From Anaerolineales bacterium (lineage in GTDB: Bacteria > Chloroflexota > Anaerolineae > Anaerolineales > E44-bin32): a stretch of DNA of 64,000 nucleotides. Every line of letters begins with the position of its first letter. Within the stretch, counting starts at the first letter, position 1. This document shows positions 40,375 through 64,000 of the stretch, one piece after another. The notes beneath the pieces are model-generated. The model was not told the DNA's origin and did not search any database. It saw nothing but the letters and a program-made list of their open reading frames with translations. The position numbers and the translations under genes are program-made. Location of the stretch: assembly GCA_036397095.1 (NCBI GenBank), contig DASWJQ010000039.1:1422-65421 (forward strand), in the 5' to 3' direction.

Positions 40375-40403
40375 TTGACAGGCGCCCAGAATCTGTCTAT
40401 AGT
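40375..40403 (+). promoter_or_regulatory. Sigma-70 promoter TTGACA-N17-TATAGT
   Basis: Consensus -35 (40375-40380), 17-nt spacer and -10 TATAGT (40398-40403), about 90 nt upstream of the GntR start codon. Confidence 0.7.
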
Positions 40404-40409
40404 GGTTCC

Positions 40410-40444
40410 GTTGACATGTAACATTTCAGATGTAACATGTCAAC
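40410..40444 (+). promoter_or_regulatory. Candidate GntR operator: inverted repeat GTTGACATGTAACAT-TTCAG-ATGTAACATGTCAAC
   Basis: 15-nt arms are complementary at 14 of 15 positions. It starts 7 nt downstream of the -10 box and contains GT..AC half-sites typical of GntR/FadR-type operators. Confidence 0.55.
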
Positions 40445-40491
40445 TTTGCCCCTGAGGTCAGGTACCCACCCTGGAGGGAGGGACCGGGACG

Positions 40492-41181
40492 ATGAGCGAA
40501 TTGTTCTCCGAGCTCAAATCAACCGATCTGACCGAACAGACCTACTCCGTCATCAAGGACCGGATTCTCGCCCGACAACTGCATCCGGGCGAGCGCATTT
40601 CGGTGGCCGACGTGGCCCATGCGCTGGGGGTCAGCCGTACGCCAGTCACCGTGGCGCTCAAGCAGCTGGCCGCCGAAGGCCTGGTGGCCATCGTGCCGCG
40701 CGTCGGCACCTTCGTCAGCCGGCTGACCGAGCGCGATGTCGAAGAGATTTTCGAGACCCGCCGGCTGATCGAAGGCTACGCCATCCGTCGCCTGTTTGAG
40801 TTGGGCAAGGTCGACGAGTACCTGCAGGCGATCGAAGGGCCGCTGGCCCGCATGGATCATGCTACCGAGGACGACGACTACGCGGACTACCAGACCTTCA
40901 TCGATGCCGACCGCGATCTGCACATGATTCTGGTCGAGTTCTCGGGCAATCAGCGTCTGATCGAGATTTACCGCGAACTTAACGTGCACGTCCATATCAC
41001 TCGCGCCCACTATATGCAAAGCATCGAAAACGCGCGCGAGGCTCGGCAGGAGCACGACTCCGTGATTGATGCGCTCTCCCACGCCGGCCCGGCCGAAGCC
41101 GAAAGCCGGCTTCTGACCCACATTGACAACGTCTGCCGACGCATCCTCGACCTGGTCGAGGAATTGGGTGGCGAGCTGTAA
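40492..41181 (+). CDS. GntR family transcriptional regulator (FadR/FCD subfamily)
   Basis: N-terminal winged helix (YSVIKDRILARQLHPGERISVADVAHALGVSRTPVTVALKQLAAEGLV) and a C-terminal all-helical FCD-like domain. Confidence 0.9.
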   Translation: MSELFSELKSTDLTEQTYSVIKDRILARQLHPGERISVADVAHALGVSRTPVTVALKQLAAEGLVAIVPRVGTFVSRLTERDVEEIFETRRLIEGYAIRRLFELGKVDEYLQAIEGPLARMDHATEDDDYADYQTFIDADRDLHMILVEFSGNQRLIEIYRELNVHVHITRAHYMQSIENAREARQEHDSVIDALSHAGPAEAESRLLTHIDNVCRRILDLVEELGGEL

Positions 41182-41987
41182 TGGGCCGAGCGGCCGACCG
41201 CGTAATGACCGGACTGCCTTCCCTCTTCCGGCTCGACCAGCAGGTTGCCATCGTCACCGGCGGCGGCCGCGGGCTGGGTCTGGCGATGGCACAGGCGCTT
41301 AGTGAGGCCGGCGCCGCCGTCGCCATCTTCGAGGTCGACCGGGAGACGGGCCAGGCCGCCGCCGAGGGCCTGACGGCCGCCGGCGGGCGATCATGGGCCA
41401 TGCCGGTGGACGTCGGCCGGGCCGACCAAATCGAAGCGGCGCTCGATCGATGCGAAGCCGAGTTGGGACAACCCACCATTCTGGTCAACAACGCCGGCGT
41501 CACCAGCAACTCGCCGTTCGAAGATCTACCGGCCGACGATTGGCAACGAGTCATCGACATCAATCTGGGCGGTGTTTTCCGCACCACGCAGGCGCTAGGC
41601 CGGCGGTTGATGGAAGGCGGCGCCGGCGGTTCGATCATCAACGTCGCTTCCATTTCGGGTCTGGTCGGCAATCGTGGCGGCAACAACAGCCACTACTGCG
41701 CCAGCAAGGGCGGCGTCATCGCATTGACCCGCTCGCTCGCAATCGAGTGGGCGCCGCACGGCATCCGCTTGAACGCCATCGCACCCGGCTACTTCGTCAC
41801 CCCCATGACCGACCAGCTCAGAATCCGAGATGCCCGCTTTTATCAGGAGCTGGTCGACCGTGTGCCGCTTGGCCGTTTTGGTCAGGGGTCGGATCTGGCC
41901 GGCGCCGTTGTCTTCCTGGCCAGCCAGGCGTCGGCCTTTGTCACCGGCCACACCCTGGTCGTCGACGGCGGCTACACGGCCTGGTAG
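41181..41987 (+). CDS. SDR family oxidoreductase (KduD / gluconate 5-dehydrogenase-like)
   Basis: VAIVTGGGRGLG, LVNNAGV, INVASISG, YCASKGGV, and a tail GHTLVVDGGYTAW closely resembling KduD/IdnO. Confidence 0.8.
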   Translation: MGRAADRVMTGLPSLFRLDQQVAIVTGGGRGLGLAMAQALSEAGAAVAIFEVDRETGQAAAEGLTAAGGRSWAMPVDVGRADQIEAALDRCEAELGQPTILVNNAGVTSNSPFEDLPADDWQRVIDINLGGVFRTTQALGRRLMEGGAGGSIINVASISGLVGNRGGNNSHYCASKGGVIALTRSLAIEWAPHGIRLNAIAPGYFVTPMTDQLRIRDARFYQELVDRVPLGRFGQGSDLAGAVVFLASQASAFVTGHTLVVDGGYTAW

Positions 41988-41999
41988 GGAGGAGTACGG

Positions 42000-43001
42000 A
42001 TGACCAGCAGCCTCGTCCCCGAACCCGCCGGCATCGCCAGCGTCCCCATGTTGCGGGCGCCCAGCGACCGGCGCAACCGGATCTTGTCGGCGGCTGCCAT
42101 CTGGGTGGTGTTGGCGATCTTGATAGTTGCAGCCTCGCTGGTGTCCCCCAACTTCCTGACCACCCGCAACCTGACCGTGCTGCTCAAACAGGCCGCCCCG
42201 CTCGGCGTCCTGGCCGTCGGACAGACAATTGTCATCCTGACCGGCGGCATCGACCTGTCGGTCGCCTCGGTCATGGCCACCGTTTCCATCTTCGCCGCCG
42301 GCATCACCAATGGCCGGGAGGAATTGGTATGGCCGGTGGTCGCCTTTTGTTTGGTATTCTCGGCGGCCGTTGGTCTGGCCAACGGCCTGATTGTCACCAA
42401 GCTCAAGATCCCGCCCTTCATTGCCACCCTCGGCATGATTCTGATCGTGCAGGGCATCCGCTTCTCCTACTCGGGTGGCACGCCGAAAACCTACATTCCT
42501 GATGTGCTCCGTTTCTGGGGGCGGGATTCGATTGGACCGGTGCCGATGGCCCTGATCACCTGGCTGCTGATCGCCGGCATCGCCACCTTTGTGCTGGCCC
42601 GCACGACCTTTGGCCGCCGCTTGTACGCCGTCGGCGGCAACGTGCGGGCAGCCTACCTGGCCGGCGTCAGCGTTGACCGCATCAAGATCGCCGCCTACAC
42701 GGTGTGCAGCTTCCTGGCGGGCATCGCCGGTCTGGTGCTGGTCGGCTACGTCGGCACCGCCGACAACTGGCTCGGGGAAGGCTATGAGCTGAACGCCATC
42801 GCCGCCGTCGTCGTCGGCGGCGCCGCCTTTGAGGGCGGCAAGGGCAGCCAACTTGGCACAATCGGCGGCGTGCTCATTCTGACAGTGCTTTTCAACCTGG
42901 TGCTCATGCTCCAGTTTCAGGAGGAATCGCGCAGGATCGTGAAAGGTCTGGTGATCCTGTTTGCGGTCGCCCTCTACGCCCGCCTACGAACGCGGCGCTA
43001 G
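42000..43001 (+). CDS. Sugar ABC transporter permease (RbsC/AraH-type)
   Basis: 333 aa, about 10 TM helices, with the GGIDLSVASVMA motif of the ribose-type permease family. Confidence 0.85.
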   Translation: MTSSLVPEPAGIASVPMLRAPSDRRNRILSAAAIWVVLAILIVAASLVSPNFLTTRNLTVLLKQAAPLGVLAVGQTIVILTGGIDLSVASVMATVSIFAAGITNGREELVWPVVAFCLVFSAAVGLANGLIVTKLKIPPFIATLGMILIVQGIRFSYSGGTPKTYIPDVLRFWGRDSIGPVPMALITWLLIAGIATFVLARTTFGRRLYAVGGNVRAAYLAGVSVDRIKIAAYTVCSFLAGIAGLVLVGYVGTADNWLGEGYELNAIAAVVVGGAAFEGGKGSQLGTIGGVLILTVLFNLVLMLQFQEESRRIVKGLVILFAVALYARLRTRR

Positions 43002-43130
43002 AGGTTGGTCCACGGCTGGGGGCAGCCAATTCATCATCGGAAGGAGGCACCAACTACTACTCTGGCTGGCAATGCACTACCCACAACGTGCAAGCGTTGC
43101 ACCCAATGACCCCCTAGGAGGACGAGAAAG

Positions 43131-44264
43131 ATGTCTATCCGCAAAAGCATGACTCTGCTGTCCCTGCTCGTGGTGCTGGCCTTACTGCTGGCAGCCTGCG
43201 GGACCGCAACGCAAGCTCCGGCCCCGGTAGTTGAAGAGCCCGCTGCCGAAGAGCCGATGGAAGAGCCGGCCGCAGGGCCGATCTCGGTTGAGCCCGATGC
43301 CGACGGCATGATCGACACCACGCCGTTTGCCAAGGACCCGCCGTACACCATCTGCTTCAGCAACGCCTCGATTGCCAATGCCTGGCGCGTCGCCATGGTG
43401 CAAAACTTCGAATATGGCATTCAGGAGGCCGAAGAGGCCGGCCTGATCGAGGAGTACCTGTACACCGACGCCAATGACGACCCCAACAAGCAGATCGGTG
43501 ACATCGAAGACCTGCTGACCAAGGGCTGTGACGTGCTGATTATCAGCGCGGCTGCCCAGGATGTGGTCGACCCCGGTGCCAAGCAAGCGATGGACCAGGG
43601 TGTGCCGGTCATCACACTTGACCGTGACGTCAGCAGCCCGGCTAACCGGGTTGCCTACGTTGATGGCGACTCCTGCTTCATGGGCACCGCCCAGGCGGAG
43701 TGGCTGGTCGAGGAACTGGGCGGCGAGGGCGATATCGTCCTGCTGTCCGGTGTGGCTGGCGCCAGCCCCGCTGAAGAGCGGCTGCGCTGCGCCCGCGAAG
43801 TCTTCGCCGCCAACCCCGGCATCGTTGAACTGGCCCATGCCTACACGGACTGGTCGCCGACTGGCGGTCAGGCCCAGATGGAAGCCTGGATCACCCAGTT
43901 TGGCGAGCAGATCGACGGCATCTGGTCCGACAGTGCGCTGCAAACCGTGGGCGCAGTCGAGGCCCTGCTGGCCGCCGAAATGACGGTCCCACCGATCACC
44001 GGTGAGGACTGGGCGCTGTTCCTGCACCAGGCGGTGGACAACGACTTCCCGTTCGCCGGAGTCAGCTTCCCCAACCGCATGGGCTACTTTGCAGTCGTCG
44101 ATGCGCTGGCGCTGCTCCAGGGCGAGCCGATCCCGTTCCACCATCAGGTGGTGGGCATCGTGATCACCATCGAGAACCTGGACGAGTACTACAACACCAG
44201 CATGTCGGATGAGCTTTGGCTCGACATGCTGCCCGAGGTTCGCGAGGAGTTCTACGGCGGCTAA
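43131..44264 (+). CDS. Sugar ABC transporter substrate-binding lipoprotein (periplasmic-binding protein type I)
   Basis: LLAACG lipobox, a Pro/Glu-rich linker and a type I PBP pattern (ICFSNASIANAWR..., DVLIISAA, VPVITLDRDV). Confidence 0.8.
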   Translation: MSIRKSMTLLSLLVVLALLLAACGTATQAPAPVVEEPAAEEPMEEPAAGPISVEPDADGMIDTTPFAKDPPYTICFSNASIANAWRVAMVQNFEYGIQEAEEAGLIEEYLYTDANDDPNKQIGDIEDLLTKGCDVLIISAAAQDVVDPGAKQAMDQGVPVITLDRDVSSPANRVAYVDGDSCFMGTAQAEWLVEELGGEGDIVLLSGVAGASPAEERLRCAREVFAANPGIVELAHAYTDWSPTGGQAQMEAWITQFGEQIDGIWSDSALQTVGAVEALLAAEMTVPPITGEDWALFLHQAVDNDFPFAGVSFPNRMGYFAVVDALALLQGEPIPFHHQVVGIVITIENLDEYYNTSMSDELWLDMLPEVREEFYGG

Positions 44265-44289
44265 ATCCCGCCGGCAAGACCGAACAAGT

Positions 44290-44324
44290 CTGCTGGCCGG
44301 AAGGCTCGGCCTTCCGGCCAGCAG
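44290..44324 (+). terminator. Intra-operon hairpin after the binding-protein gene
   Basis: CTGCTGGCCGGAAGGC-TCG-GCCTTCCGGCCAGCAG forms a 16-bp perfect stem, followed by GTTTCACC (weak T tract). Confidence 0.5.
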
Positions 44325-44358: not shown

Positions 44359-45858
44359 GTGACCGACCTGATTGAGATGCGGAACATAACCAAATCCTTC
44401 CCTGGCGTGGTCGCCTTGGAAGACGTCTCCTTCAGCTGCCGCGCCGGCGAAGTGCATGCCGTCGTCGGTGAAAACGGCGCCGGTAAGTCGACCTTGATGA
44501 AGGTCCTGGCCGGGGTATACCAACCCGACAGCGGCCAGATCTTGATCGACGGCCAACCTGTGCATATGGCCAGCCCGCACGCGGCCCAAGGGCTGGGCAT
44601 CAGCATCATCTATCAGGAGCTCAATCTGCTGGCCGATATGAACCTGGCCCAAAACGTCTTCCTCGGGCGCGAGCCGCACAGCCGGCTCGGCTTGACCGAT
44701 GACAAAGAACTCGAGGTTCGGGCGCGTGACATCCTTCGCCGGCTGGGTATCGACCTCGATCCCCGCACCCGGCTCGGCCGGCTCAGCGTCGCCCAGCAGC
44801 AGATGGTCGAAATCGCCAAGGCCCTGTCCCTCAACGCCCGTGTGGTCATTATGGACGAGCCGTCGGCCGCCCTTGGTGGCCGCGACCTGGATTACCTCTT
44901 CGACGTCATCCGCGCCCTCAAGGAACAAGGCGTCGGTGTGATCTACATTTCCCACCGCATCGCCGAGGTCTTCACGGTGGCCGACCGCGTCACGGTCTTC
45001 AAGGACGCCAAGGTCGTCGGCACCCACAGCGTCAGCCAGATCGACCGGGGCACCCTGGTACGGCTGATGATCGGCAAGACCTTCTCCGAAACCTTCCCGC
45101 CGCGCGGCGCTGAGGCCGGACCGGAGGTGCTGCGCGTCGAAAAGCTGTCGGTCAACACCGAGCTGCGCGATGTCAACCTGGTCGTGCGCGGCGGTGAAAT
45201 CGTCGGCATCGCCGGACTGGTCGGCGCCGGCCGGACCAAACTGGCTCATGCCATCTTCGGCACCTGCAAATTGGACCATGGACTTATTCACATTAATGGC
45301 ATGCCGAGCCGGATCTCCTCCCCGCGCCATGCGTTGCGCCATCGCATGGGCTTTCTGACGGAAGACCGCAACGCCGAAGGACTGGTGCTGGGCCAGACCG
45401 TGCTGCACAACGCGGCCCTGCCCAGCCTGGGCAATCGCCAGCGCTGGGGGGTAGTCAACCGCAAAGTCGAGCGCGACGTGATCAACCAGACCACCAGCGG
45501 TTTGCGCTTGCGGGCGCCCAGCCTGGCGGCCGAGGTTGAGAACCTGAGCGGTGGCAACCGGCAGAAGGTCGTGCTGGCCAAGTGGCTGATCAGCCAGCCA
45601 GAGCTGCTCATTTTCGATGAGCCAACCCGCGGCATTGACGTCGGCGCCAAGGGCGATATCTGGCAGCTGATGCGCGACCTGGCCAACGAGGGCAAAGCCA
45701 TCCTGATGATCTCATCCGAGCTGCCCGAGATTATTGGCATGAGCGACCGGATTTACGTGATGCACAGCGGCACGATCGTCGGCGAACGCCGGGGGGCCGA
45801 AGCCAACGAAGAGGACGTCATGATGCTCGCCACCTACGGCCAAGATCATGGCCACTGA
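44359..45858 (+). CDS. Sugar ABC transporter ATP-binding protein (duplicated ATPase, RbsA-type)
   Basis: Two Walker A sites (GENGAGKST; GLVGAGRT), signature motifs (LSVAQQQ; LSGGNRQK) and Walker B (VIMDEPS; LIFDEPT). GTG 44359 was chosen because GAGG lies 8 nt upstream. Confidence 0.85.
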   Translation: MTDLIEMRNITKSFPGVVALEDVSFSCRAGEVHAVVGENGAGKSTLMKVLAGVYQPDSGQILIDGQPVHMASPHAAQGLGISIIYQELNLLADMNLAQNVFLGREPHSRLGLTDDKELEVRARDILRRLGIDLDPRTRLGRLSVAQQQMVEIAKALSLNARVVIMDEPSAALGGRDLDYLFDVIRALKEQGVGVIYISHRIAEVFTVADRVTVFKDAKVVGTHSVSQIDRGTLVRLMIGKTFSETFPPRGAEAGPEVLRVEKLSVNTELRDVNLVVRGGEIVGIAGLVGAGRTKLAHAIFGTCKLDHGLIHINGMPSRISSPRHALRHRMGFLTEDRNAEGLVLGQTVLHNAALPSLGNRQRWGVVNRKVERDVINQTTSGLRLRAPSLAAEVENLSGGNRQKVVLAKWLISQPELLIFDEPTRGIDVGAKGDIWQLMRDLANEGKAILMISSELPEIIGMSDRIYVMHSGTIVGERRGAEANEEDVMMLATYGQDHGH

Positions 45859-46849
45859 GATCATCCGGGCCCGACCTCCAGCCAGCCGGTTTCAGCGGTT
45901 GTGGGATGAGCAGCGCGACGTCATCATCATTTACGGCTTGCTGCTGACCATGGTGCTGCTGGCGGCCATCTTCCTGCCCGACTTCAGGCTCGGCCGCAAT
46001 CTGTCCAACGTACTGCGCCAGAGCGTGGCGCTGGGTATTGTCAGCATCGGCCAAACGGTCGGTATCCTGATCGGGGGCATCGACCTGTCTGTCGGCGCCA
46101 CCATCAGCCTGGTCAACGTCTACGCCACCGGCTTCATGGCCAACTACACCACGCCGGTCCAGGTGGCCGGCATGGTGGTGGCCCTGCTGGCACTGGGGTT
46201 GGTCATCGGCGCCGTCAACGCCACCGTCATCACCCGGCTGCAGGTGGCCCCTTTCATTGCCACCATGGGCATAGGCGCCATCCTGCAGGGCATGGTGCTG
46301 CTGTACGCCAAGAAGCCCGGCGGCAGCATCGCCCCCGGCTGGGATTTCTTCGCCTTTGGCATGGTTGGCCCGGTGCCGTTCCCGGTGATCTTTACCGCGG
46401 TGCTGGTGGGCATCACCTGGCTGGCGCTGACTAAGACCGTCTGGGGCCGACACGTCAAAGCCACTGGCGGCAGCGAGCTGATCGCTCGCCTGTCGGGTGT
46501 TGAAACCCGCCGCGTGATGACCTATGCCTATATGTTCTGCAGCTTCATGGCCGCCATGACCGGGCTCTACCTGGCGAGCCGGATGGGGGCCGGCGACCCC
46601 GGTGTCGGCGGTCTCAACTACGACCGCTTCGACCTGGATTCGATTGCCGCTGTGCTGATTGGCGGTACCCGCCTCGGTGGCGGCAAGGGGAGCGTAATCG
46701 GCACGATTGCCGGTGTCCTGATTGTCTCGGTCCTGAACAACATTTTCAACCTGGTCGGCGTCAACCCCTACATTCAATGGATCATCAAGGGCTTGATCCT
46801 GTTGGGCGCGGTCGCTATCTACTCGGCACGCAGCAGCTCCCGGTCGTGA
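45848..46849 (+). CDS. Sugar ABC transporter permease (second RbsC-type subunit)
   Basis: 333 aa with the GGIDLSVGATISL motif. Overlaps the ATPase stop codon. Confidence 0.85.
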   Translation: MATEIIRARPPASRFQRLWDEQRDVIIIYGLLLTMVLLAAIFLPDFRLGRNLSNVLRQSVALGIVSIGQTVGILIGGIDLSVGATISLVNVYATGFMANYTTPVQVAGMVVALLALGLVIGAVNATVITRLQVAPFIATMGIGAILQGMVLLYAKKPGGSIAPGWDFFAFGMVGPVPFPVIFTAVLVGITWLALTKTVWGRHVKATGGSELIARLSGVETRRVMTYAYMFCSFMAAMTGLYLASRMGAGDPGVGGLNYDRFDLDSIAAVLIGGTRLGGGKGSVIGTIAGVLIVSVLNNIFNLVGVNPYIQWIIKGLILLGAVAIYSARSSSRS

Positions 46850-46860
46850 ATCCTTGGCCA

Positions 46861-47697
46861 ATGGACGCCGCCCGCAACTACGCCCCAAACGTCAGCTGGC
46901 TTTTCCCCGAGCTGCCCTTCGCCGAGCGCCTGGCCTCGGTGAGTGCCTTGGGCTTTCGGGCGATCGAATTCGGTTTCCCAAGTCAGGCTGATATCGAGGC
47001 GCTGGCAGCCGCCCAGCGGCACGACGGGTTGACCATCGTGCTCTTCAACCAGGATGTGCCGGTGTGGGATGGGGCCAACCGCGGCTACCTGGTCGACCCG
47101 GCCCGCCGCCATGAATTCGATCGCCAGCTCGACCGCGCCCTGGATATCGCCGAGCGGCTGCACGTTGCCAAGATCATGCTGCCGGCTGGCGTTCGCCTAC
47201 CGGCGCTTGCTCGGCAAGCCCAGGTCGATTGCCTGCTCGCCAATCTGGCCCTTGCCGCGCCGCGGGCCGCTTCGGCCGGCGTGCTGCTTACCTTGGAAAT
47301 GCTCAACCCGGCCGATAACCCGGGCTATTTTCTGGACAGCACCAGCGAAACACTCGATCTGGTCAAGCAAGTTAATCATCCCAACATCCGATTTCAATTT
47401 GACAGCTACCATGTCCAGCGAATGGAAGGCGACCCAGTCGAGCGGCTGGCGGGCATCGGCCCCTGGTTGGGCCACGTGCAGTTCGCCGATGAGCCGGGAC
47501 GACACGAGCCGGGCACTGGCAAAATCGATTTCAACCGCCTGACCAGATGGCTGGCCGATGAGGGCTACCACGATTGGATCGGGCTTGAGTACGTACCCCA
47601 ACAACCCGGGGCGGCCGCGCTGGCCTGGTGCTTGCCGGCCACCCCGGCCTCCGACCCCACCAACATCCAAGCAAACGCCACAAGGAGGCAAGAATGA
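46861..47697 (+). CDS. Hydroxypyruvate isomerase family TIM-barrel enzyme (Hyi/OtnI-like)
   Basis: Collinear with E. coli Hyi: N.SWLF.E..F..R...A...GF...EF.FP, LEMLN, IRFQFDSYHVQRMEGD, HVQFAD.PGRHEPGTG.IDF and WIGLEY.P. Confidence 0.8.
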   Translation: MDAARNYAPNVSWLFPELPFAERLASVSALGFRAIEFGFPSQADIEALAAAQRHDGLTIVLFNQDVPVWDGANRGYLVDPARRHEFDRQLDRALDIAERLHVAKIMLPAGVRLPALARQAQVDCLLANLALAAPRAASAGVLLTLEMLNPADNPGYFLDSTSETLDLVKQVNHPNIRFQFDSYHVQRMEGDPVERLAGIGPWLGHVQFADEPGRHEPGTGKIDFNRLTRWLADEGYHDWIGLEYVPQQPGAAALAWCLPATPASDPTNIQANATRRQE

Positions 47698-48518
47698 GTC
47701 CGCTGTACAAGGCGCCGTCAGAGCACGGCCACCACACTGTGTTTAAGCCTGGCCAGGACGGCATCGAGTGGCTTGGCCTTGATATGCTCCGTCTGAAAGC
47801 CGGCGAGAGATGGCAAGGTTCCTTCGGCCAGGTCGAGACTGCTTTCGTGATCCTGGGCGGCCGCTGCCATCTCACCCTGGCCGGCCCCCAGCCCAATACA
47901 TGGCACAACTTGGGCGGCCGGGCCGACGTCTTTAGCGGCGCCGGCACCACCGTCTACCTGCCGCCTAAGGCCGAGATCGAGGTCGAGGCCGTCAGCGGGC
48001 TGGAAGTTGCGCTGGCCAGCTCACCGTGCGACGTAGAACTGCCGCCAGTTGTGATCGGACCAGATGACGTCAAAGTGATCTCGGCTGGCGCCTCGAACTG
48101 GCGCCGCGACGTTCGGCTGATGATTCCGCCGGGCTCCCCCATCAGCCAGCGCATGATCGTCGGCGAAACGCTCAACCCGCCAGGCAATTGGTCGGGCGTG
48201 CCGCCGCACAAGCACGACCTGAACTCCGACATTGAGAACTTCCTCGAGGAGTTCTACCTGTTCAAGGCCAGGCCGGGCGACGGCTACGGGGTCCAACTGA
48301 TGTACCACGATGACCAGGGCGAAGGCCTGCTGGTTGGCGACAACAGGGTCAGCGTTATGCTCAAGGGCTACCACCCGACGGTGGCCGCCCCCGGCGTTAC
48401 CCTGTGCTACCTGTGGGTGCTGGCCGGCGAGGTGAAGGACTACGACATCACGATCGATCCGCGCTTCGGCTGGGTCGCCCAGACCGAATCCGTGCTGCGC
48501 GAGAACCGCAACGGCTAG
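47694..48518 (+). CDS. iolB: IolB family isomerase (5-deoxy-glucuronate isomerase-like)
   Basis: GNWSGVPPHKHD, FLEEFYLF and GYHPTVAAPG match B. subtilis IolB (GNWSSYPPHKHD, FLEETYYH, GYHPV). AAGGAGG RBS. ATGA overlap with the upstream gene. Confidence 0.75.
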   Translation: MSPLYKAPSEHGHHTVFKPGQDGIEWLGLDMLRLKAGERWQGSFGQVETAFVILGGRCHLTLAGPQPNTWHNLGGRADVFSGAGTTVYLPPKAEIEVEAVSGLEVALASSPCDVELPPVVIGPDDVKVISAGASNWRRDVRLMIPPGSPISQRMIVGETLNPPGNWSGVPPHKHDLNSDIENFLEEFYLFKARPGDGYGVQLMYHDDQGEGLLVGDNRVSVMLKGYHPTVAAPGVTLCYLWVLAGEVKDYDITIDPRFGWVAQTESVLRENRNG

Positions 48519-48527: not shown

Positions 48528-49427
48528 ATGGCCAAGACCTTTCAACCCCGCGGCATCATCCCGGCGATGGTCACGCCGCTGACCAGCGACGACACGATCG
48601 ACGTCGCCGGCCTGACCGCCCTGACCCGCCACCTGATCGAAGGCGGCTGTCATGGCTTGTTCAGCGTCGGCAGCCAAGGGGAGTTCTGGGCGTTGACGGC
48701 CGAGGAAAAACAGCTGACCTGGGAAACGGTCGTGGCCGAGACCAACGGCCAGATCCCGGTGTACGCCGGCAGCAACGCCGTCACCACTCGCGAAGCGGTC
48801 GTCCTGACGCAGCTGGCCGAGCGCTGCGGCGTAGACGCCGTGTCGGTGCTCACACCGTTTTTCATATCACCGACCGATGATCAACTGTTCGCCCATTACC
48901 GGGCGATTGCTGACGCCAGTTCCCTGCCGGTCGTCCTGTACGCCAACCCGGCCCGCACGGCCGTCAAGCTGTCCGTCGATCTGGTCGCCCGGCTGGCCGA
49001 AGTGCCGGGGATCGTCGGCATTAAGGACTCGAGCGGCGATTTGGGCCTGACCGCCGCCTACATCGGTGCCGTTCCCGCCACCTTTTCCGTCTTGATGGGC
49101 AACGACGCACTGATCCTGGCCAGTCTGATTTACGGCACCAAGGGCGCCATCGCCGCCACCGCCAACGTCGTGCCGGACATGGTGGTGGCCATCTACGACC
49201 TGTTCTTGCAGGGAGACATTGGCGGGGCCCGCCAGGCGCAGGACCGGCTGGCAGCGCTGCGGCGGGCCTTCACCTGGGGCACCTTCCCCGTGGTTATCAA
49301 AGAAGCACTGGACTTGATCGGGCTGCCGGCCGGACCGGCGCGGGCCCCGGTCGGTCCCCTTACCGACGACCAACGCCAGCGGCTGCGCCAGCTGCTGGTC
49401 AGCCTGGATCAGGCTGTTGTCGCCTGA
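48528..49427 (+). CDS. DapA/NAL family lyase (dihydrodipicolinate synthase-like; probable 2-keto-3-deoxy-acid aldolase or dehydratase)
   Basis: GIIPAMVTPL....ID...L..L...LI..G.HGLF..GS.GEF, and the GIKDSSGD Schiff-base lysine motif. Confidence 0.8.
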   Translation: MAKTFQPRGIIPAMVTPLTSDDTIDVAGLTALTRHLIEGGCHGLFSVGSQGEFWALTAEEKQLTWETVVAETNGQIPVYAGSNAVTTREAVVLTQLAERCGVDAVSVLTPFFISPTDDQLFAHYRAIADASSLPVVLYANPARTAVKLSVDLVARLAEVPGIVGIKDSSGDLGLTAAYIGAVPATFSVLMGNDALILASLIYGTKGAIAATANVVPDMVVAIYDLFLQGDIGGARQAQDRLAALRRAFTWGTFPVVIKEALDLIGLPAGPARAPVGPLTDDQRQRLRQLLVSLDQAVVA

Positions 49428-53517: not shown

Positions 53518-53988
53518 ATGGACTACCCGATCAAGTTCACCCTTAACAGCGCCGAAGTCGAAGTGGAAGCGCCGGCCACCATCAACTTGCTGCGCTTGCT
53601 GCGCGACTACCTCGATGTCACCGGCCCCAAGTTTGGTTGCGAGCAAGGCAACTGCGGCGCCTGTACCGTGCATATTGACGGCGAAGCCGCCAACGCCTGC
53701 CTGGTTCACGGCCTGACAATCGACGGGCGTGAAGTGACCACTGTTGAGGGGCTGGGAACGATGGAGGCGCCCGATCCACTGCAGCTGGCTTTCTACGAGC
53801 ATTACGGCGCCCAGTGCGGCTTCTGCACGCCGGGCATGCTGATGGCCTCCAAGGCCCTGCTCGACCATAACCCCCACCCCACGCGCGACGACGTGGTTGA
53901 AGCCATCGTCGGCAACGTCTGCCGCTGCACCGGCTACAACAAGATCATCGAATCGGTGCTAGCAGCGGCCGACGCGGCGCGCGAATAG
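53518..53988 (+). CDS. Molybdenum hydroxylase [2Fe-2S] subunit (CoxS/NdhS-like)
   Basis: GCEQGNCGACTV and CGFCTPG...C.CTGY cysteine clusters. 156 aa. Confidence 0.9.
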   Translation: MDYPIKFTLNSAEVEVEAPATINLLRLLRDYLDVTGPKFGCEQGNCGACTVHIDGEAANACLVHGLTIDGREVTTVEGLGTMEAPDPLQLAFYEHYGAQCGFCTPGMLMASKALLDHNPHPTRDDVVEAIVGNVCRCTGYNKIIESVLAAADAARE

Positions 53989-55316: not shown

Positions 55317-56378
55317 ATGGCGAAGAAACGAGGCGTAGGCATCTCCGCCGTCTGGTATCCAACCGGCATGAGCGGCGGCGGCGATCCCAGCCAGGCCATC
55401 ATCAAGATGCAGCCGGACGGCAGCGTGGATGTGTTGATTGGCACGGTCGATATCGGCCAAGGCGTGCGGACTGTCGTGCGCCAAATCGCCGCCGAGGAAC
55501 TGGGCGTGCCGATCGAGCGAGTAAGCGTGACCGTCGTCGATACGGATTCCAGCCCACTAGACACCGGTACGTTTGCCAGCCGTGCCACCCACCAGACGGG
55601 CAATGCCGTGCTGCAAGCGGCGGCCGAGGCTCGCCAGGTGCTGCTCGAGGTCGGCGCCCAACAACTGGGCGTTGAACCCGAAGCGTTGGTGCTGGAGAAT
55701 GACACGGTTGTCGTCAAGGATCACCCCGAGCAGGCCATCCCGATTCCCGACGTGGCCAGTCATGCCACTTGGGCGGAACGCCGGCTGATCGCTGGCCGGG
55801 GGGCCTTTGGCTGGGCGGTGGCCAAGGTCGACAGTGAAACCGGCCAAGGCGAACCGCTCCACACCATGGCCTACGGCGCCACCTTGGCCGAGGTCGAGGT
55901 CGACACCGAGACCGGCGAGGTCAAGGTGCTCAAGCTGGTCAGCGCTTACGACTGCGGCAAGGCGATCAACCGCTTGCTGGTCGAAGGCCAAATCGACGGG
56001 GGCGCCGCCATGGGCCTGGGGTCGGCCTTGATGGAGGAGCTACACCCCTACTACCCGTCCCTCGAGCACCACCCGACCGGATTCTTCTCGTACATGCTGC
56101 CAACGGCCAAGGACGTACCGCCACTGGAGGCCGTGATCGTCGAGATGAATTCCGACACCGGTCCCTATGGCGCCAAGGGGATCGGCGAGATGACGGCCAA
56201 TTCGCAAGCACCGGCCATCATCAACGCCATCCACGACGCTATCGGAGTCTGGATCACCGACATCCCCGCCACCTCGGAAAAGGTGCTGCGGGCGATCGAG
56301 GCCCAGGCCGGCGAAGACATCCAGCCGGGCTATGTACCACCCGAGCCGTACTGGCCGCATGAAGCCATTGCCGGCTGA
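55317..56378 (+). CDS. Molybdopterin-binding subunit, C-terminal half (NdhM-like)
   Basis: 353 aa: IGQG..T...QIAAEELG....V.V...DT, GTFASRAT, and the GAKGIGEMT.....PAI.NAIHDA active-site Glu loop. AGGGAGG RBS 5 nt upstream. Confidence 0.8.
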   Translation: MAKKRGVGISAVWYPTGMSGGGDPSQAIIKMQPDGSVDVLIGTVDIGQGVRTVVRQIAAEELGVPIERVSVTVVDTDSSPLDTGTFASRATHQTGNAVLQAAAEARQVLLEVGAQQLGVEPEALVLENDTVVVKDHPEQAIPIPDVASHATWAERRLIAGRGAFGWAVAKVDSETGQGEPLHTMAYGATLAEVEVDTETGEVKVLKLVSAYDCGKAINRLLVEGQIDGGAAMGLGSALMEELHPYYPSLEHHPTGFFSYMLPTAKDVPPLEAVIVEMNSDTGPYGAKGIGEMTANSQAPAIINAIHDAIGVWITDIPATSEKVLRAIEAQAGEDIQPGYVPPEPYWPHEAIAG

Positions 56379-56418: not shown

Positions 56419-57315
56419 ATGTCGAAGACCCCGAGGAAGCGAGCCCCCAGCGCGGACCAAGGCGAGACCTTCTGCGTCGGCTCGGTCTGTCTCCCGGTTC
56501 ACCTTGGCAACGACAGCCAGTTCATCCCGCACCCCCAGGTGTATGTCGAACCGTCCCAGGGCTACCTGGAGAAACTGGCCTACGCCGTGGAAACTAACTT
56601 GCCGGCGCTGTTGATCGGCGAGACCGGCGTCGGCAAGACGCTGGCGGTGCGCCACCTGGCGTCCAAAACCAACAACGGGCTGCGCCGGGTCAACCTGAAC
56701 GGTGCGACCACCGTCGACGAGTTCCTCGGCAAGCTGCTGATCAACGAGCAGGGCACCTACTGGGTCAATGGGGTACTCGTCGATGCCATGCTGGCGGGCG
56801 ACTGGATTCTGCTTGACGAGATCAACGCCACCCTGCCCGAGATCGCCTTCTGTCTTCACTCGCTGCTGGATGACGATCGTATGGTGGTCCTGATGGAATA
56901 CGACGGTCGGATCGTGCGGCCGCATCCCAACTTCCGCTTATTCGCCAGCATGAACCCCAGCGAGCAGGCTCGTTACGGCGGCACCAAGACGCTCAATGAG
57001 GCGTTGCTCGACCGCTTCCCGGTCGTCATTCGGATGGACTACCTGTCGGAGAACGAGGAAGTGGCCGCCGTCATCGCCCAATCCGGCCAAAAGGACGAAG
57101 GGGTGGTGCGGCGCATGGTGCGCTGTGCCAACGAGGTGCGGGCCGCCATCGGCCAAGAAAAGGTGTTCGGCTCCTTCAGCACCCGGCGAGTCACCGACTG
57201 GGCTCGGATGAGCCTGCAGTTCGATGTGCGCGAAAGCGCCGATGTGACCGTGCTCAGCAAGCTGAACCCGTTCGACGCCGAGGTGGTGGAGGACATCGTT
57301 GACAACTACTTCTGA
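56419..57315 (+). CDS. AAA_5-type ATPase (CbbQ/NorQ/CoxD-like)
   Basis: Walker A LLIGETGVGKT, Walker B WILLDEINA, and the HPNFRLFASMNP and LLDRF sensor motifs. Confidence 0.8.
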   Translation: MSKTPRKRAPSADQGETFCVGSVCLPVHLGNDSQFIPHPQVYVEPSQGYLEKLAYAVETNLPALLIGETGVGKTLAVRHLASKTNNGLRRVNLNGATTVDEFLGKLLINEQGTYWVNGVLVDAMLAGDWILLDEINATLPEIAFCLHSLLDDDRMVVLMEYDGRIVRPHPNFRLFASMNPSEQARYGGTKTLNEALLDRFPVVIRMDYLSENEEVAAVIAQSGQKDEGVVRRMVRCANEVRAAIGQEKVFGSFSTRRVTDWARMSLQFDVRESADVTVLSKLNPFDAEVVEDIVDNYF

Positions 57316-59038
57316 GCCGGCCGCCGACCCCCGGCTCGAGTCCTTGCGCCTGCGCCTCGAACGGCTGCTTCAGGTCACGGCCGGTCAATTCGACCTGCGA
57401 TTTGCCTTCGGAGACCGTGATTGGCTGGGGGTGGGCGAACTCCAGCTCAATGCCGATCCGGCCCAGGTGATTGCCCTGCCCTACGCGCACCTCAAGGGCC
57501 GGGCGCTGCATTTGTTCGGCCACTTGCGCGAAGAGAGTCATCGCTGGCTTCCCCGGGCCCAGCAGCTGGAAGCCGCCGGCCGGCCGCATTTCGCCCGCCT
57601 GTGGCACGCACTCGAAGACGCCCGGCTCGAAAACCGGTTGATCGCCCGTTGGCCGGGGATGGCCAAACACCTGGATGCCAAGATCCCGCCCAAGTTGGGC
57701 GGCAGCTTGCTCCGCCTGGCCACACCCACCCGCCAGATTGAGCTGGGCCTGTATTACCTGGGACGCGGCCTGGCCGGCGCCCAATTCAGCCGGCGAGTTG
57801 CCCGGTTGTTTGACCAGGCCGGGACCCTGATCCAGTCCGCCTGCCAAGCCGAAACGGCCGAAGCCACCGTGGCCGCCGCCGAAGCCTTGTATCCGTTGGC
57901 CGTCCCCTTCTTGCGCGGCCAAATGGCCGAATCCGATGAACTGCCCCAGAGCCATCCGCTGCCAAGTGATCCAGCGGAAGACCCGTCGGAGCCTGAAGCC
58001 GACCGCTCCCAACCAGCGCCGCTCATCGGGCTCGACAATGACTTGCTTGGGGCCGGTGATCCCGCCGATGTGCCCCAGGCTGACCGCTTTGCAGTCGGCA
58101 GCCTGCCCTGGTTCGAGCGCGGCTTGGGCGCCAAACAAGTCCACCCGAGTGTGGTGCAGAGTGACCGGCAGACGATCGTGCTGCCTCCGCCACACGATCC
58201 CGCAGCCTACCGAAGCATGCTGGCCGACGTCCAGGGCGATGCCCGCCGCCTGGCCCAACGTCTTCGCCTGGTCTACCAGGAGAGCCAGTACCTTCGTTTT
58301 GGCGGCCGCTTCCGCAGCGGCAAGCTCGACAACGCCCGCCTGTGGCGCCAGCGCAGTGGCAGCTACCGCTTGTTCCAGCGACGCCTGGAACCGCTCGACC
58401 GCCAGTGGGCGGTCAGCCTGCTGATCGATGAGAGCGCCAGCATGCGATCCGACGCCAGGTGCCGAGTGGCCGCGCTGGCCGCGGTGCTCATTGGCGAGGC
58501 GCTGGCCGAGCTCGAGATTCCATTCGAAATCATCGGCTTCAGCACCGACCAGTTCGAGGCCGAAGCCGCCCTGGGCCTTGGCCTGCGGCCGGCGCACGCC
58601 TACCGCACCACCCGCTGCAGCCGCCTCGAACACCGGCTCTACAAGAGCTACGACGAGCCATATCGCCTGGCGGCTCGCCGGCTTCCCGGCATCGAAGCCC
58701 GGCACAACAACTGGGATGAAGAACACCTGTGGTTTGCCTTCCGTCGGCTCCAAGGAAGGCGCGCCGCCCACCGCATGATGCTGGTCGTCTGCGATGGCCA
58801 GCCGAACGGTGATGCCGATCACCTGATCGCCACGGTCCGCCAGCTCGAACGGCTTGGTACGACCGTCATCGGCATCGGGATCGGCGAGGACTTCGTGCGC
58901 CGCGCTTATCGGCGCGCCATTGTCGCAACCGATATTCCTTCGCTCGCCCGGGCGCTGATGGAAATCCTGGCGCGCGAGCTAGGGCGCAGCCCGACGGCTG
59001 TTCGGGGCGCCGCTCCCGCAGGGGTCGGGCTTCCATAG
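57299..59038 (+). CDS. VWA domain protein (NorD/CbbO/CoxE-like partner of the AAA_5 ATPase)
   Basis: 579 aa. The C-terminal VWA domain has MIDAS residues (LLIDESASMRS ... VVCDGQPNGD). The N-terminal region contains the LWHALEDARLE motif seen in NorD/CobT-like proteins. TTG start with GGAGG 7 nt upstream. Confidence 0.7.
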   Translation: MTTTSEPAADPRLESLRLRLERLLQVTAGQFDLRFAFGDRDWLGVGELQLNADPAQVIALPYAHLKGRALHLFGHLREESHRWLPRAQQLEAAGRPHFARLWHALEDARLENRLIARWPGMAKHLDAKIPPKLGGSLLRLATPTRQIELGLYYLGRGLAGAQFSRRVARLFDQAGTLIQSACQAETAEATVAAAEALYPLAVPFLRGQMAESDELPQSHPLPSDPAEDPSEPEADRSQPAPLIGLDNDLLGAGDPADVPQADRFAVGSLPWFERGLGAKQVHPSVVQSDRQTIVLPPPHDPAAYRSMLADVQGDARRLAQRLRLVYQESQYLRFGGRFRSGKLDNARLWRQRSGSYRLFQRRLEPLDRQWAVSLLIDESASMRSDARCRVAALAAVLIGEALAELEIPFEIIGFSTDQFEAEAALGLGLRPAHAYRTTRCSRLEHRLYKSYDEPYRLAARRLPGIEARHNNWDEEHLWFAFRRLQGRRAAHRMMLVVCDGQPNGDADHLIATVRQLERLGTTVIGIGIGEDFVRRAYRRAIVATDIPSLARALMEILARELGRSPTAVRGAAPAGVGLP

Positions 59039-60099
59039 TGAAGTCAGTCCCAGCCGGCCAGCCGGCGCGCCAGCGGCGGGAACCCACACTAAATGCCGTT
59101 CGGGTGCCGCGGCCGGGCGTCGTCGAATTCGTGGACCTGGAGCGGCGCCCACTGGCCGAGGGCGAAGTCCGGCTGCAGGTCGAGGCGATCGGGATCTGCG
59201 GATCGGACGTGGCGCTGCTGGCCGGGCGGCATCCATACGCGGCGTATCCGGTCGTCCCCGGGCATGAGGTCGGCGGTCGCGTGCTCGAGGCCGGGCCTGG
59301 TGTGGTGCTGGAGATTGGGCAGCGGGTGGCGGTCCGACCGCTACTGACCTGCGGAATCTGCCGGGCCTGCCGCGAAGGCCGCGTGAACCACTGCGCCGAG
59401 GTTCGTGTGCTGGGGGTGCACCTGGACGGGGGCATGGCCGAAGAGTTCGTCGTCCCACAGGAGCTGCTGTTCCCGGTGCCGGAGGGGATGAGCGGAGAGT
59501 GGGCGGCGCTGGCCGAGCCCACCGCGGTGGCAGTGCACCTGTGCCATCGGGCCGGCATCGGACCGGGCAGCAGTGTCGCGATCCTGGGGACCGGCGTGAT
59601 CGGGCTGCTGGCGCTGCAGGTGGCCCGGGCCTGGGGTGCGCAGGCCGTACTGGCGGTGGATCAAGTGCCGGAGCGCCTAGAGCTTGCCATGCGGCTGGGC
59701 GCCGCCCAGGCGCTAGACAACCGGCAGGAAGACGTCCTGGACGCCGGCCGCCGATTGTGCCCGGACGGGTTTGATGTGGTCCTCGAAATGGTGGGCGCCG
59801 AGGCCACCCTGGCCAGTGCGCTGGAGCTCACCCGCCGTGGGGGCGGTATTGTGTTCGTGGCGCTGCCCCACGGGAAGATCGCACTCGATTTTGAGCCGGT
59901 CTATCGCAAGGAGCTCTCCCTGCTCGCCACGCGGCTGTATGCAGCGGATTTCGCCGAGGCGATCCCGCTGCTGGCCTCCGGACTGGTGCAGGTGGATCCG
60001 ATCATCACCCACCGCTTCGGGCTGGCCCAGGCAGCCGAGGCGCTGGCCCTGCCGGGCCAGCGCCCAAGTGAAGCCATCAAGGTCATGGTCATCCCATGA
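59038..60099 (+). CDS. Zn-dependent MDR alcohol/polyol dehydrogenase
   Basis: ICGSD....G......YP.VPGHE..G.V.E.G, the CG.C..C..G..N.C cluster and GTGVIGL Rossmann motif. The GTG start overlaps the upstream TAG. Confidence 0.75.
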   Translation: MKSVPAGQPARQRREPTLNAVRVPRPGVVEFVDLERRPLAEGEVRLQVEAIGICGSDVALLAGRHPYAAYPVVPGHEVGGRVLEAGPGVVLEIGQRVAVRPLLTCGICRACREGRVNHCAEVRVLGVHLDGGMAEEFVVPQELLFPVPEGMSGEWAALAEPTAVAVHLCHRAGIGPGSSVAILGTGVIGLLALQVARAWGAQAVLAVDQVPERLELAMRLGAAQALDNRQEDVLDAGRRLCPDGFDVVLEMVGAEATLASALELTRRGGGIVFVALPHGKIALDFEPVYRKELSLLATRLYAADFAEAIPLLASGLVQVDPIITHRFGLAQAAEALALPGQRPSEAIKVMVIP

Positions 60100-60154
60100 A
60101 TGCAATCCCAGGCCCTGAACCCAGGGCACAACCTAGTTGAGAAGGAAGAGGATC

Positions 60155-61657
60155 ATGGAAATCACCGGTGAAGTGCAGAAGATGGCGATGCTGATCGACG
60201 GGCAACCTGTCGTTGGCAACGGCGACGCGGTCGTCGAGGTGTTCAACCCTTCGACCGGCGAGTTGGTCGGCCGGGTGCCGATCGCCTCGGAGGCCGAGAT
60301 CAACCTGGCGGTCGAAGCGGCCGACCGCGCCTTCAAAACATGGCGAGACACGCCGGCTGTCGAGCGCGCTGCCCATATACGGGCGCTGATCGCCATCGTG
60401 CGTCAGAATATCGATGACCTGGCCCGTACCCTGACCATGGAACAGGGCAAGCCCTTTCCACAAGCCAAGGGCGAGATCAACGGCTTTTGCGCTGTGCTCG
60501 AGTTCTACGCCGAGGAAGCCCGCCGCATCAGCGGCATGGTGCTCGAATCGGACCAAACCGACCGCTTCGTGTACGTTCTGCGCCATCCAGTTGGCGTGAT
60601 CGCCGCCATCCCACCGTGGAATGATCCGCTCCACCTGTTGAGCCGGATGATCGGCCCGGCGCTGGCTGCCGGCTGCACCGTCGTCGCCAAACCCAGCTCC
60701 GACACGCCGCTGACCACGCTCCAGATGGCCGAACTGGCCCATAAGGCCGGTTTGCCGGCCGGTGTGTTCAACGTCATCACCGGGCCGGGCGGCCGCGTCG
60801 GTGAAGCATTGGTGCGCCATCCAAAGGTGCGCAAGGCCTCGCTGACCGGCAGCCTGGCCGGCGGCCAATCGGTCATGCAGACGGCAGCCGAGGGCATCAA
60901 GAGTGTCACGCTGGAATTGGGCGGCCAGTGCCCATGCATCGTGTGGCACGACGCCGATCTGGACAAGGCCGTCGAGGCCCTGACCTTCCAGGCGTTCCGC
61001 GGCTGTGGCCAGGTATGCAACCGCGTCAACCGTGTTTACGCCCACGCCGATATTTACGACGAGCTTGTCAACCGGGTTGCCGAGTTGGCCGGGCGCATCC
61101 ATGTCGGCGATGGCTTTGCCGACGATATCGACATTGGCCCGCTGGTCAACGAACGACAGCTCGCGTGGGTCACTGGACAGGTCGCCGACGCCCTCAATAA
61201 GGGCGCCCGGCTTTTGGCCGGCGGCCAGCGCAAGGCCGGCGACGGCTACGACAACGGCTTCTTCTTCGAGCCGACCGTGCTGGCCGACTGCAACCACCAG
61301 ATGGGTGTGATGACCGAAGAGACTTTCGGGCCGGTGCTGGCCTTCGCCAAGGTTGACGGCGAGCTGGAAGCGGTTATCGACATGGCCAACGACAGCTGGA
61401 ATGGCTTGAGCGCTTACTTCTTCAGCGCCAACCAGCGCAACTGCTATCTGGCCGCCCGGCGGCTTGAAGCCGGCTCGATCTGGATCAACGATATCCACGG
61501 CTCGATGGTGCAGGCCCCCTACGGCGGGATGAAGCTGAGCGGCATCGGCCGCGAGCAGGGCTCGATCGCCATCGACGAGTATCTGGAATGGAAGACCGTT
61601 TACCAGGAGATGAGCGAGGAGTCGCGCGGCGCCCGCTTATGCGTCCGCCCTGCCTAA
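60155..61657 (+). CDS. NAD(P)-dependent aldehyde dehydrogenase
   Basis: FNPSTGE, the IPPWN.P motif, KPSSDTPLT, LELGGQCP and a catalytic Cys context (RGCGQVCN), and EETFGPV. GAAGGAAGAGG RBS. Confidence 0.85.
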   Translation: MEITGEVQKMAMLIDGQPVVGNGDAVVEVFNPSTGELVGRVPIASEAEINLAVEAADRAFKTWRDTPAVERAAHIRALIAIVRQNIDDLARTLTMEQGKPFPQAKGEINGFCAVLEFYAEEARRISGMVLESDQTDRFVYVLRHPVGVIAAIPPWNDPLHLLSRMIGPALAAGCTVVAKPSSDTPLTTLQMAELAHKAGLPAGVFNVITGPGGRVGEALVRHPKVRKASLTGSLAGGQSVMQTAAEGIKSVTLELGGQCPCIVWHDADLDKAVEALTFQAFRGCGQVCNRVNRVYAHADIYDELVNRVAELAGRIHVGDGFADDIDIGPLVNERQLAWVTGQVADALNKGARLLAGGQRKAGDGYDNGFFFEPTVLADCNHQMGVMTEETFGPVLAFAKVDGELEAVIDMANDSWNGLSAYFFSANQRNCYLAARRLEAGSIWINDIHGSMVQAPYGGMKLSGIGREQGSIAIDEYLEWKTVYQEMSEESRGARLCVRPA

Positions 61658-61658
61658 C

Positions 61659-62618
61659 ATGAGCGATCCGTCCCGTCGGCCGGTCGTCCTGCTTTTCGAA
61701 GAAATCCACCCCAAGGCCGTCGAACGGCTGACGGCCAAGGCCGAGGTGCGCCTGGCGACCAGCCTGGCCCCGGAGGCCCTGCTCCACCAAGTGGCCGACG
61801 TCGACGGCATCATCATCCGCGCCAACGGCAAGGTCGACCGGCGCCTGATGGAGGCTGCTCCAAGGCTCAAGGTGGTGGGTCGCCATGGCACCGGCGTCGA
61901 GGCCATTGACCTGGAGGCTGCCGTCGAACGCAGCATTGCCATCGTGAACACCCCCTTGGCCAACGTCGAGTCGGTCGCCGAACACGCCCTGGGCATGATG
62001 ATCGCCCTGGCCAAACGGCTGCCCGAGGCCGACCGGGCCATCCGCGCCGGCGACTGGGACGCCCGCTACCGCTTGACCGGCCGCGAGCTGGCCGGCAAGA
62101 CGCTGGGGCTGGTCGGGATGGGCCGCATCGGCGGCCGCCTGGCCGAGCTAGCCCACGGTGCATTTGCCATGCGCCTGCTCTACCGCGATATCCAACCGTA
62201 CCCGGATTATGAGGCCCGTCTCAAAGCCGAACGAGTCGAACTTGACCAACTGCTGGTCGAATCGGATGTGGTTTCGGTCCATGTTCCGCTGCTGCCTGAG
62301 ACCCACAGCCTGATTGGCGAAGCCGAGCTGCGGTCCATGCGCTCGACTGCATTCCTGCTCAACACGGCGCGCGGCGCCGTTGTCGACAGCCAAGCGCTGC
62401 TGCAAGCGCTAACCGAGGGTTGGATTGCTGGCGCCGGCCTGGACGTATTCGAGCCAGAGCCGCTGCCGCCCGACCACCCGCTGCTGGCGCTCGAGAATGT
62501 CATCCTGTCGCCGCACATGGCGGCGCACACCGATGAGGCGCTGCTGCGCATGGCCCTGGTGGCCGACGACATCCTGGCCGTCCTCGACGGCCGTGAACCG
62601 ACCCATCGCGTCGCCTGA
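61659..62618 (+). CDS. D-isomer-specific 2-hydroxyacid dehydrogenase (SerA/GhrA-like)
   Basis: GLVGMGRIGGRLA NAD motif, LLNTARG, and the SPHMAAHT catalytic His context. Confidence 0.8.
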   Translation: MSDPSRRPVVLLFEEIHPKAVERLTAKAEVRLATSLAPEALLHQVADVDGIIIRANGKVDRRLMEAAPRLKVVGRHGTGVEAIDLEAAVERSIAIVNTPLANVESVAEHALGMMIALAKRLPEADRAIRAGDWDARYRLTGRELAGKTLGLVGMGRIGGRLAELAHGAFAMRLLYRDIQPYPDYEARLKAERVELDQLLVESDVVSVHVPLLPETHSLIGEAELRSMRSTAFLLNTARGAVVDSQALLQALTEGWIAGAGLDVFEPEPLPPDHPLLALENVILSPHMAAHTDEALLRMALVADDILAVLDGREPTHRVA

Positions 62619-62654
62619 CGGGCGGCACGTCCTTAGCTGCAAGGAGTATTCATC

Positions 62655-63572
62655 GTGGACCCCAACTGGCAAGATTTCTGCACACTGAGCATCGTCCACT
62701 TCATGGCCTTCCCCAAGGTCATGCCAGGCGACGGGCCGATCGTAGAGACTGTTCAACAGATCGCCGAAGATCCGTTCTTCCAAGGGATCGAAATCGGGTG
62801 GATTAAGGATCCGGCCGTGCGGCGTGAAGTAAAGGCCGTCCTGGATGCCAACGACATGAAGGTCGGTCATGGTGCGCAATCGGCCCTGCTCATCGGCAAG
62901 CACAATCTCAACAGCCTAGACGCGGCCGAACGCCAGGCCGCCGTCGGCCAGCTCAAGGCCAATATCGATGAGGCCGCCGAGCTGGGCGCCAAGCGGGTTG
63001 CCTTCCTGTCGGGAAAGGACCCGGGGGATGAGCTTCGCGCCGAGGCGCTCGAGGCGCTCGTCGCCTCGCTCGAGGAAGCCTGTGCCTATGGCCAGGAGCG
63101 CGCCATCGCCCTTGCCTGCGAGACCTTCGACCGCACCGTGGACAAGAAGTGCCTGATCGGCCCCAGCCCATACGCTGCCGAGTTTGCCCGCCGCGTGCGT
63201 CAGAAGTACCCTGACTTCGGCCTGATGTACGACCTGAGCCACATGCCGCTGCTGTACGAGGAGCCGCTTCCCGCGCTGGCCACTCTCAAGGACGTCCTGG
63301 TTCACATTCACGTAGGCAACTGCGTGCTCGACCCAGCTAGCCCGGCTTACGGCGATTTGCACCCCCGTTTTGGATTTCCAGGCGGGGAAAACGACGTTGA
63401 CGAGCTGACCGCCTTCCTTAAGGCGCTGTTCGAGATTGGCTACCTGGCCGAGGGCAAGCAGGACAAACCGTGGGTCGGGTTTGAGGTCAAACCGCAGAGC
63501 GAAGCGGAAAGCTCCACCGAACTGATCGAGGCCACCAAAGACGTCTGGCGCCGGGCCTGGTCGCGCCTGTAG
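62655..63572 (+). CDS. Xylose-isomerase-like TIM-barrel protein (sugar phosphate isomerase/epimerase family)
   Basis: 305 aa with alternating beta/alpha motifs and metal ligands (E in CETFDR, D in YDLSHM, HIHVGN, E in FEVKP). AAGGAG RBS 8 nt before the GTG. Confidence 0.6.
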   Translation: MDPNWQDFCTLSIVHFMAFPKVMPGDGPIVETVQQIAEDPFFQGIEIGWIKDPAVRREVKAVLDANDMKVGHGAQSALLIGKHNLNSLDAAERQAAVGQLKANIDEAAELGAKRVAFLSGKDPGDELRAEALEALVASLEEACAYGQERAIALACETFDRTVDKKCLIGPSPYAAEFARRVRQKYPDFGLMYDLSHMPLLYEEPLPALATLKDVLVHIHVGNCVLDPASPAYGDLHPRFGFPGGENDVDELTAFLKALFEIGYLAEGKQDKPWVGFEVKPQSEAESSTELIEATKDVWRRAWSRL

Positions 63573-63598
63573 CCACTGGTTGAAAGTAAGGAGTCGTG

Positions 63599-64000
63599 AT
63601 GACCAAACCCAAGGTTTTTGTGTCGCGCATCATCCCGGACAAGGGCTTGGAGCGTCTGCAAGCACTGGCCGAAGCCGAGATTTGGCCGGGCGACGAACCG
63701 CCACCCTATGAGACTTTGATCGACAAGGTCAAGGGAGTCGACGGCCTGGTTTGTCTGTTGACCGACCGAATCGATGGTTCGTTGATGGACGCCGCCGGCA
63801 ACCAGCTTAAGGTCATCTCGCAGATGGCCGTTGGCTTCGACAATATCGACGTCGCCGCCGCCACTGAGCGCGGCATCCCGGTCGGACACACACCCGGCGT
63901 GCTGACCGACACGACCGCCGATTTCGCCTTCAGTCTGTTGATGACAGCCGCACGCCGCATTACGGAGGGGGTCGACTACGTCAGGGCCGGCAAGTGGAAG
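63599..64000 (+). CDS. Glyoxylate/hydroxypyruvate reductase B-like D-2-hydroxyacid dehydrogenase, N-terminal part (runs off the right edge)
   Basis: MTKPKVFVSRIIPDKGLERL...VDGLVCLLTDRID..L.DAAG.QLKVISQMAVGFDNIDV.AATERGIPVGHTPGVLTDTTADFAFSLLM.AARRI is the typical GhrB N-terminus. AAGGAG RBS. Absent from the ORF track because there is no stop codon in the window. Confidence 0.8.
   Translation, partial: MTKPKVFVSRIIPDKGLERLQALAEAEIWPGDEPPPYETLIDKVKGVDGLVCLLTDRIDGSLMDAAGNQLKVISQMAVGFDNIDVAAATERGIPVGHTPGVLTDTTADFAFSLLMTAARRITEGVDYVRAGKWK

Follow-up and report, generated by a model that had tools for sequence, protein, structure and literature searches.

The non-phosphorylative Entner-Doudoroff branch of archaea combines a molybdenum or tungsten glyceraldehyde oxidoreductase with a MOFRL glycerate 2-kinase. 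The oxidative deoxyribose pathway of Pseudomonas simiae has a Mo dehydrogenase and a lactonase, and ends at glycerate kinase (PMC6365646). Spontaneous loss of CO2 by 3-oxo sugar acids has also been described, and dihydroxyacetone is reported from L-threonate (PMC12994016). These systems are precedents for a cluster in a window of 64 kb (the whole stretch of DNA analysed), whose positions 40375-64000 encode 22 complete open reading frames and one cut by the window end, all on the + strand. The initial annotation was right about the same-strand run, which has 23 genes instead of 22. Our best explanation, to which we give as a whole about an even chance, is that this region is the first ~23.6 kb of a catabolic cluster of ~27-28 kb, native to an uncultured member of the Anaerolineales (Chloroflexota), and that it would encode a non-phosphorylative oxidative route from a sugar or sugar acid to glycerate and then 2-phosphoglycerate. 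The features are as follows.

40375-40403, +, sigma-70-type promoter TTGACA-17 nt-TATAGT (11/12 consensus matches)
40410-40443, +, operator (presumed), a 34-bp inverted repeat GTTGACATGT...ACATGTCAAC read from the sequence just 3' of the promoter
40492-41181, +, GntR-family regulator with FCD effector domain (PF00392, PF07729)
41181-41987, +, SDR dehydrogenase, gluconate-5-DH / glucose-1-DH / KduD-like (PF13561); long-type clusters only
42000-43001, +, CUT2 ABC permease 1 (PF02653)
43131-44264, +, lipoprotein solute-binding protein, SBP (Peripla_BP_4, PF13407); signal peptide and LAAC lipobox read from the sequence
44290-44324, +, perfect hairpin of 16-17 bp, 3' of the SBP gene (z = -4.96, minimum free energy -49.2 kcal/mol)
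44359-45858, +, ABC ATPase with duplicated ABC_tran domains (PF00005 twice; start from gene calls)
45848-46849, +, CUT2 ABC permease 2 (PF02653)
46861-47697, +, core, Hyi/OtnI-like TIM-barrel isomerase (HyiTIM), 2-oxo-3-hydroxy acid to 2-hydroxy-3-oxo acid type (PF01261)
47694-48518, +, core, IolB/KduI-family cupin, aldose-ketose isomerase type on acid sugars (PF04962, 202 bits)
48528-49427, +, DapA-family class I lyase (PF00701); long-type clusters only
49461-50507, +, Zn-MDR dehydrogenase 1 (MDR1), Tdh-like with a Glu_dehyd_C match (PF08240, PF00107, PF16912)
50538-51683, +, core, UlaG-like MBL-fold lactonase (NF008688 212.8, cut-off 306; HxHxDH motif intact)
51715-52626, +, near-core, HIBADH-family dehydrogenase, tartronate-semialdehyde reductase / LtnD-like (PF03446, PF14833)
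52630-53511, +, core, Mo hydroxylase FAD subunit (PF00941, PF03450)
53518-53988, +, core, Mo hydroxylase 2x[2Fe-2S] subunit (PF01799, PF00111)
54006-55316, +, core, Mo hydroxylase large subunit, N-terminal part, NdhL-like (PF01315, PF02738)
55317-56378, +, core, Mo hydroxylase large subunit, C-terminal part, NdhM-like (PF20256; catalytic GAKGIGE Glu present)
56419-57315, +, AAA_5 ATPase, CbbQ/NorQ/CobS class (PF07728, PF08406)
57299-59038, +, VWA protein, CobT_C type (PF11775), partner of AAA_5, whose gene it overlaps by 17 nt
59038-60099, +, Zn-MDR dehydrogenase 2 (MDR2), accessory (PF08240, PF00107)
60155-61657, +, NAD(P) aldehyde dehydrogenase (ALDH), SSADH/KGSADH-like (PF00171, 527 bits; TIGR01780 490.9, cut-off 646)
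61659-62618, +, D-2-hydroxyacid dehydrogenase 1 (D2HDH1), glyoxylate / hydroxypyruvate / 2-ketoaldonate reductase type (PF02826, PF00389; NF009714 290.9, cut-off 455)
62655-63572, +, divergent AP_endonuc_2 TIM barrel (TIM2; PF01261, 77.8 bits)
63599-64000, +, D-2-hydroxyacid dehydrogenase 2 (D2HDH2), truncated at the window end (326 aa when complete; NF009714 398.9, cut-off 455, with the complete protein of L001)

The tight spacing noted initially is seen throughout the run: neighbouring genes are spaced by -17 to +40 nt with three exceptions, between the genes of permease 1 and the SBP (129 nt), the SBP and the ATPase (94 nt), and MDR2 and ALDH (55 nt). When the sequence beyond position 64000 was examined, an overlapping contig (locus L001), which shares 99.95% identity with the window across 11.3 kb, showed that the cluster goes on for ~4 kb. 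It carries the rest of D2HDH2, a terminator-like hairpin, and genes for a MOFRL glycerate 2-kinase (NF041176, 234.9 bits), a MoeA-like protein, a cyclophilin-like protein and TauE. The kinase gene starts 105 nt 3' of D2HDH2, and its apparent absence in the initial annotation was an artefact of the window edge. The G+C content equals that of the flanks, and the cluster is therefore not a compositional island. As for the proposal of one or a few long operons, the run itself stands, yet two hairpins, a strong one behind the SBP gene and a terminator-like one behind D2HDH2, point to multiple transcript levels or units. Judging by its sequence, the former is likely a transcript-stabilising or attenuating element.

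A synteny search showed that the co-occurrence of the core genes recurs, with conserved order, in about 20-25 species-level Anaerolineales/Chloroflexota MAGs, and the arrangement is therefore beyond chance. All relatives are MAGs, a few of them probably mis-binned. We defined as close the 29 loci with a UlaG-like protein at least 70% identical to that of the window. They include the Mo FAD subunit (25/29), the IolB-like cupin (21/29), the HIBADH-type dehydrogenase (20/29), HyiTIM (19/29) and AAA_5, which follows the Mo genes (19/29). The invariant core consists of the Hyi/OtnI-like TIM barrel, the IolB-like cupin, the UlaG-like lactonase and the four-subunit NdhFSLM-type Mo hydroxylase with AAA_5/VWA, usually with HIBADH alongside. 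Locus L010 defines the minimal gene set, because beside an orthologous transporter, whose SBP is 52% identical, it has only the five core enzymes plus maturation genes. Short-type clusters lack the SDR, the DapA-MDR1 pair and the MDR2-ALDH-D2HDH-TIM2-D2HDH-GlyK block. The cluster is thus a mosaic of this core and flanking lineage-specific modules (SDR, DapA-like lyase and MDR, ALDH, D2HDH, TIM2), and the idea of 24 kb forming one indivisible pathway had to be abandoned.

The initial placement of a consensus promoter and an operator at the head of these genes agrees with the near-perfect promoter, the palindrome, and the conservation of its motif in L010 and L022. The operator holds two exact ATGTAACAT half-sites (GT-N-AC type), which have no other exact copies in the 64 kb window. 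In L010, ACATGTAACAT lies beside a TTGACA promoter upstream of the orthologous GntR gene, and the short-type locus L022 has an exact copy of the motif. The regulator reached no equivalog cut-off in the NCBIfam HMM search; FCD-type GntR regulators in general sense carboxylates. The palindrome, just downstream of the -10 element, is the presumed target of this repressor, with binding predicted from the sequence and release probably caused by a carboxylate intermediate. Since the motif is common to long- and short-type clusters, this suggests that the effector belongs to the core they share.

Pfam and NCBIfam HMM searches reproduced every family named initially, and nearly all catabolic enzymes score below the NCBIfam equivalog cut-off. 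The cluster departs from each of the Ula, Otn/Ltn, Iol, Kdu, Gar/Gud and archaeal non-phosphorylative Entner-Doudoroff systems in at least one defining feature, in line with the earlier view that this enzyme mix fits no characterised pathway. Within the core, HyiTIM scores 233 for Hyi (TIGR03234, cut-off 353) and 206 for OtnI (NF043033, cut-off 325), with PDB matches to 3NGF (154 bits) and Escherichia coli YgbM (1K77, 126 bits). The cupin scores 190.8 for IolB (TIGR04378, cut-off 205; PDB 2QJV, 100 bits), and the HIBADH-type enzyme 211.9 for TIGR01505 (cut-off 340.75) and 150.9 for ThreonDh (cut-off 350). The UlaG-like protein is ~35% identical to enterobacterial UlaG (PDB 2WYL, 186 bits), with H138, H140, D142 and H143 invariant. 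An IlvD/Edd dehydratase adjoins the UlaG-like gene in 23 of 54 distant loci, where HIBADH, aldolases (HpcH or DapA), transporters (CUT2 or TRAP) and GntR regulators are further recurrent genes; these neighbours argue that the protein is a sugar-acid lactonase. The complementary distribution of HyiTIM plus IolB and of IlvD/Edd could be a mere lineage effect. The best NCBIfam matches of five genes are Hyi, tartronate-semialdehyde reductase, glyoxylate/hydroxypyruvate reductase (twice) and glycerate 2-kinase, which for the lower pathway points to the tartronate semialdehyde/hydroxypyruvate/glycerate node.

The closest characterised relative of the Mo hydroxylase is the nicotinate dehydrogenase of Eubacterium barkeri: the NdhL-like part matches 3HRD_A over its full length (229.5 bits) and the NdhM-like part aligns end to end with 3HRD_B (240 bits). 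This speaks against our best explanation, because that relative hydroxylates an N-heterocycle and is not an aldehyde oxidoreductase. On the other side, a tungsten AFOR replaces the Mo hydroxylase in otherwise similar clusters (Mo enzyme in L014, AFOR in L072, L076 and L079, with common LarA-like and DUF6282 genes at 73-74% identity), and L011 and L044 have AFOR together with a UlaG-like gene and a CUT2 transporter. This replacement is an argument for an aldehyde or a lactol as the substrate of the Mo enzyme. The AAA/VWA pair always lies 3' of the Mo genes, with a MoeA-like and a cyclophilin-like gene, and these four are best read as probable dedicated maturation factors of the Mo enzyme and not as part of catabolism. 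By analogy with CoxD (PMC3471820), AAA_5 would be the presumed maturation motor.

Among the add-ons, the SDR scores 267.8 for NF006070 (cut-off 279) and 219 for kduD (cut-off 338.85). MDR1, always paired with the DapA-like gene, is above the cut-off for NF003808 (404, cut-off 380) and below it for TIGR00692 (401, cut-off 458); besides the window, MDR2 occurs only in L015 and L020. The DapA-like lyase keeps the Schiff-base Lys and the equivalents of Tyr133 and Arg138. We rejected its assignment as a canonical DHDPS, since SQ and FF stand in place of the TT/ST and YY motifs of DHDPS. TIM2 has no NCBIfam match better than E = 1e-8 (best IolO, 33.7 bits) and no PDB match above 24 bits. Its family is far larger (3984 homologues), and in other genomes a transketolase-like gene is linked with TIM2 and its neighbours; the distal block may therefore belong to a different route.

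The non-phosphorylative oxidative route proposed initially is still the best reading if qualified as "largely", and comparative genomics strengthens it. The data show which genes are present, their families, their synteny and the sequence of the operator; from these we infer the reaction order, the substrate and what the Mo enzyme does. The CUT2 (ribose-type) importer with its lipid-anchored SBP would import a small sugar, polyol or sugar lactone. The UlaG-family enzyme would open a lactone ring, the HIBADH-type dehydrogenase and Hyi/OtnI-type isomerase would interconvert hydroxy, 2-oxo and 3-oxo acids, the cupin would interconvert ketose and aldehyde forms, and the cytoplasmic Mo hydroxylase would oxidise the carbon of an aldehyde or lactol, taking the oxygen from water. 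For the five core enzymes, the concrete scheme that is most coherent, one among several possibilities, would have seven steps: aldose or lactol to lactone (Mo enzyme), lactone to aldonate (UlaG-like hydrolysis), aldonate to 2-oxo acid (HIBADH oxidation), 2-oxo to 3-oxo acid (OtnI-like isomerisation), loss of CO2 to give a ketose one carbon shorter, ketose to aldehyde (IolB-like isomerisation), and aldehyde to glycerate (Mo enzyme). A C4 substrate (tetrose, tetritol or tetronate) fits it best. The add-ons may supply front-end polyol/aldose dehydrogenases (one SDR, two MDRs) and the class I lyase, then ALDH, two glyoxylate/hydroxypyruvate-type reductases and the extra TIM barrel. Carbon would leave as pyruvate and a C3 acid (tartronate semialdehyde, hydroxypyruvate or glyceraldehyde, then D-glycerate), with the MOFRL glycerate 2-kinase as the predicted sole phosphorylation.

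Several further observations weigh against this explanation. A DapA-family lyase needs a 2-keto-3-deoxy acid, yet the window and the 4.3 kb beyond it contain no sugar-acid dehydratase of any known family. The step assignments all rest on family-level similarity under equivalog cut-offs, the PDB search gave no informative close relative of the SBP (best matches 4RS3, 5HKO, 2IOY and 4RSM, only 88 bits), and eight redox enzymes exceed the need of any simple linear scheme. By means of an unusual molybdenum enzyme, this widely conserved cluster of uncultured Chloroflexi probably serves to burn a small sugar, a polyol or a sugar lactone almost without phosphorylation.

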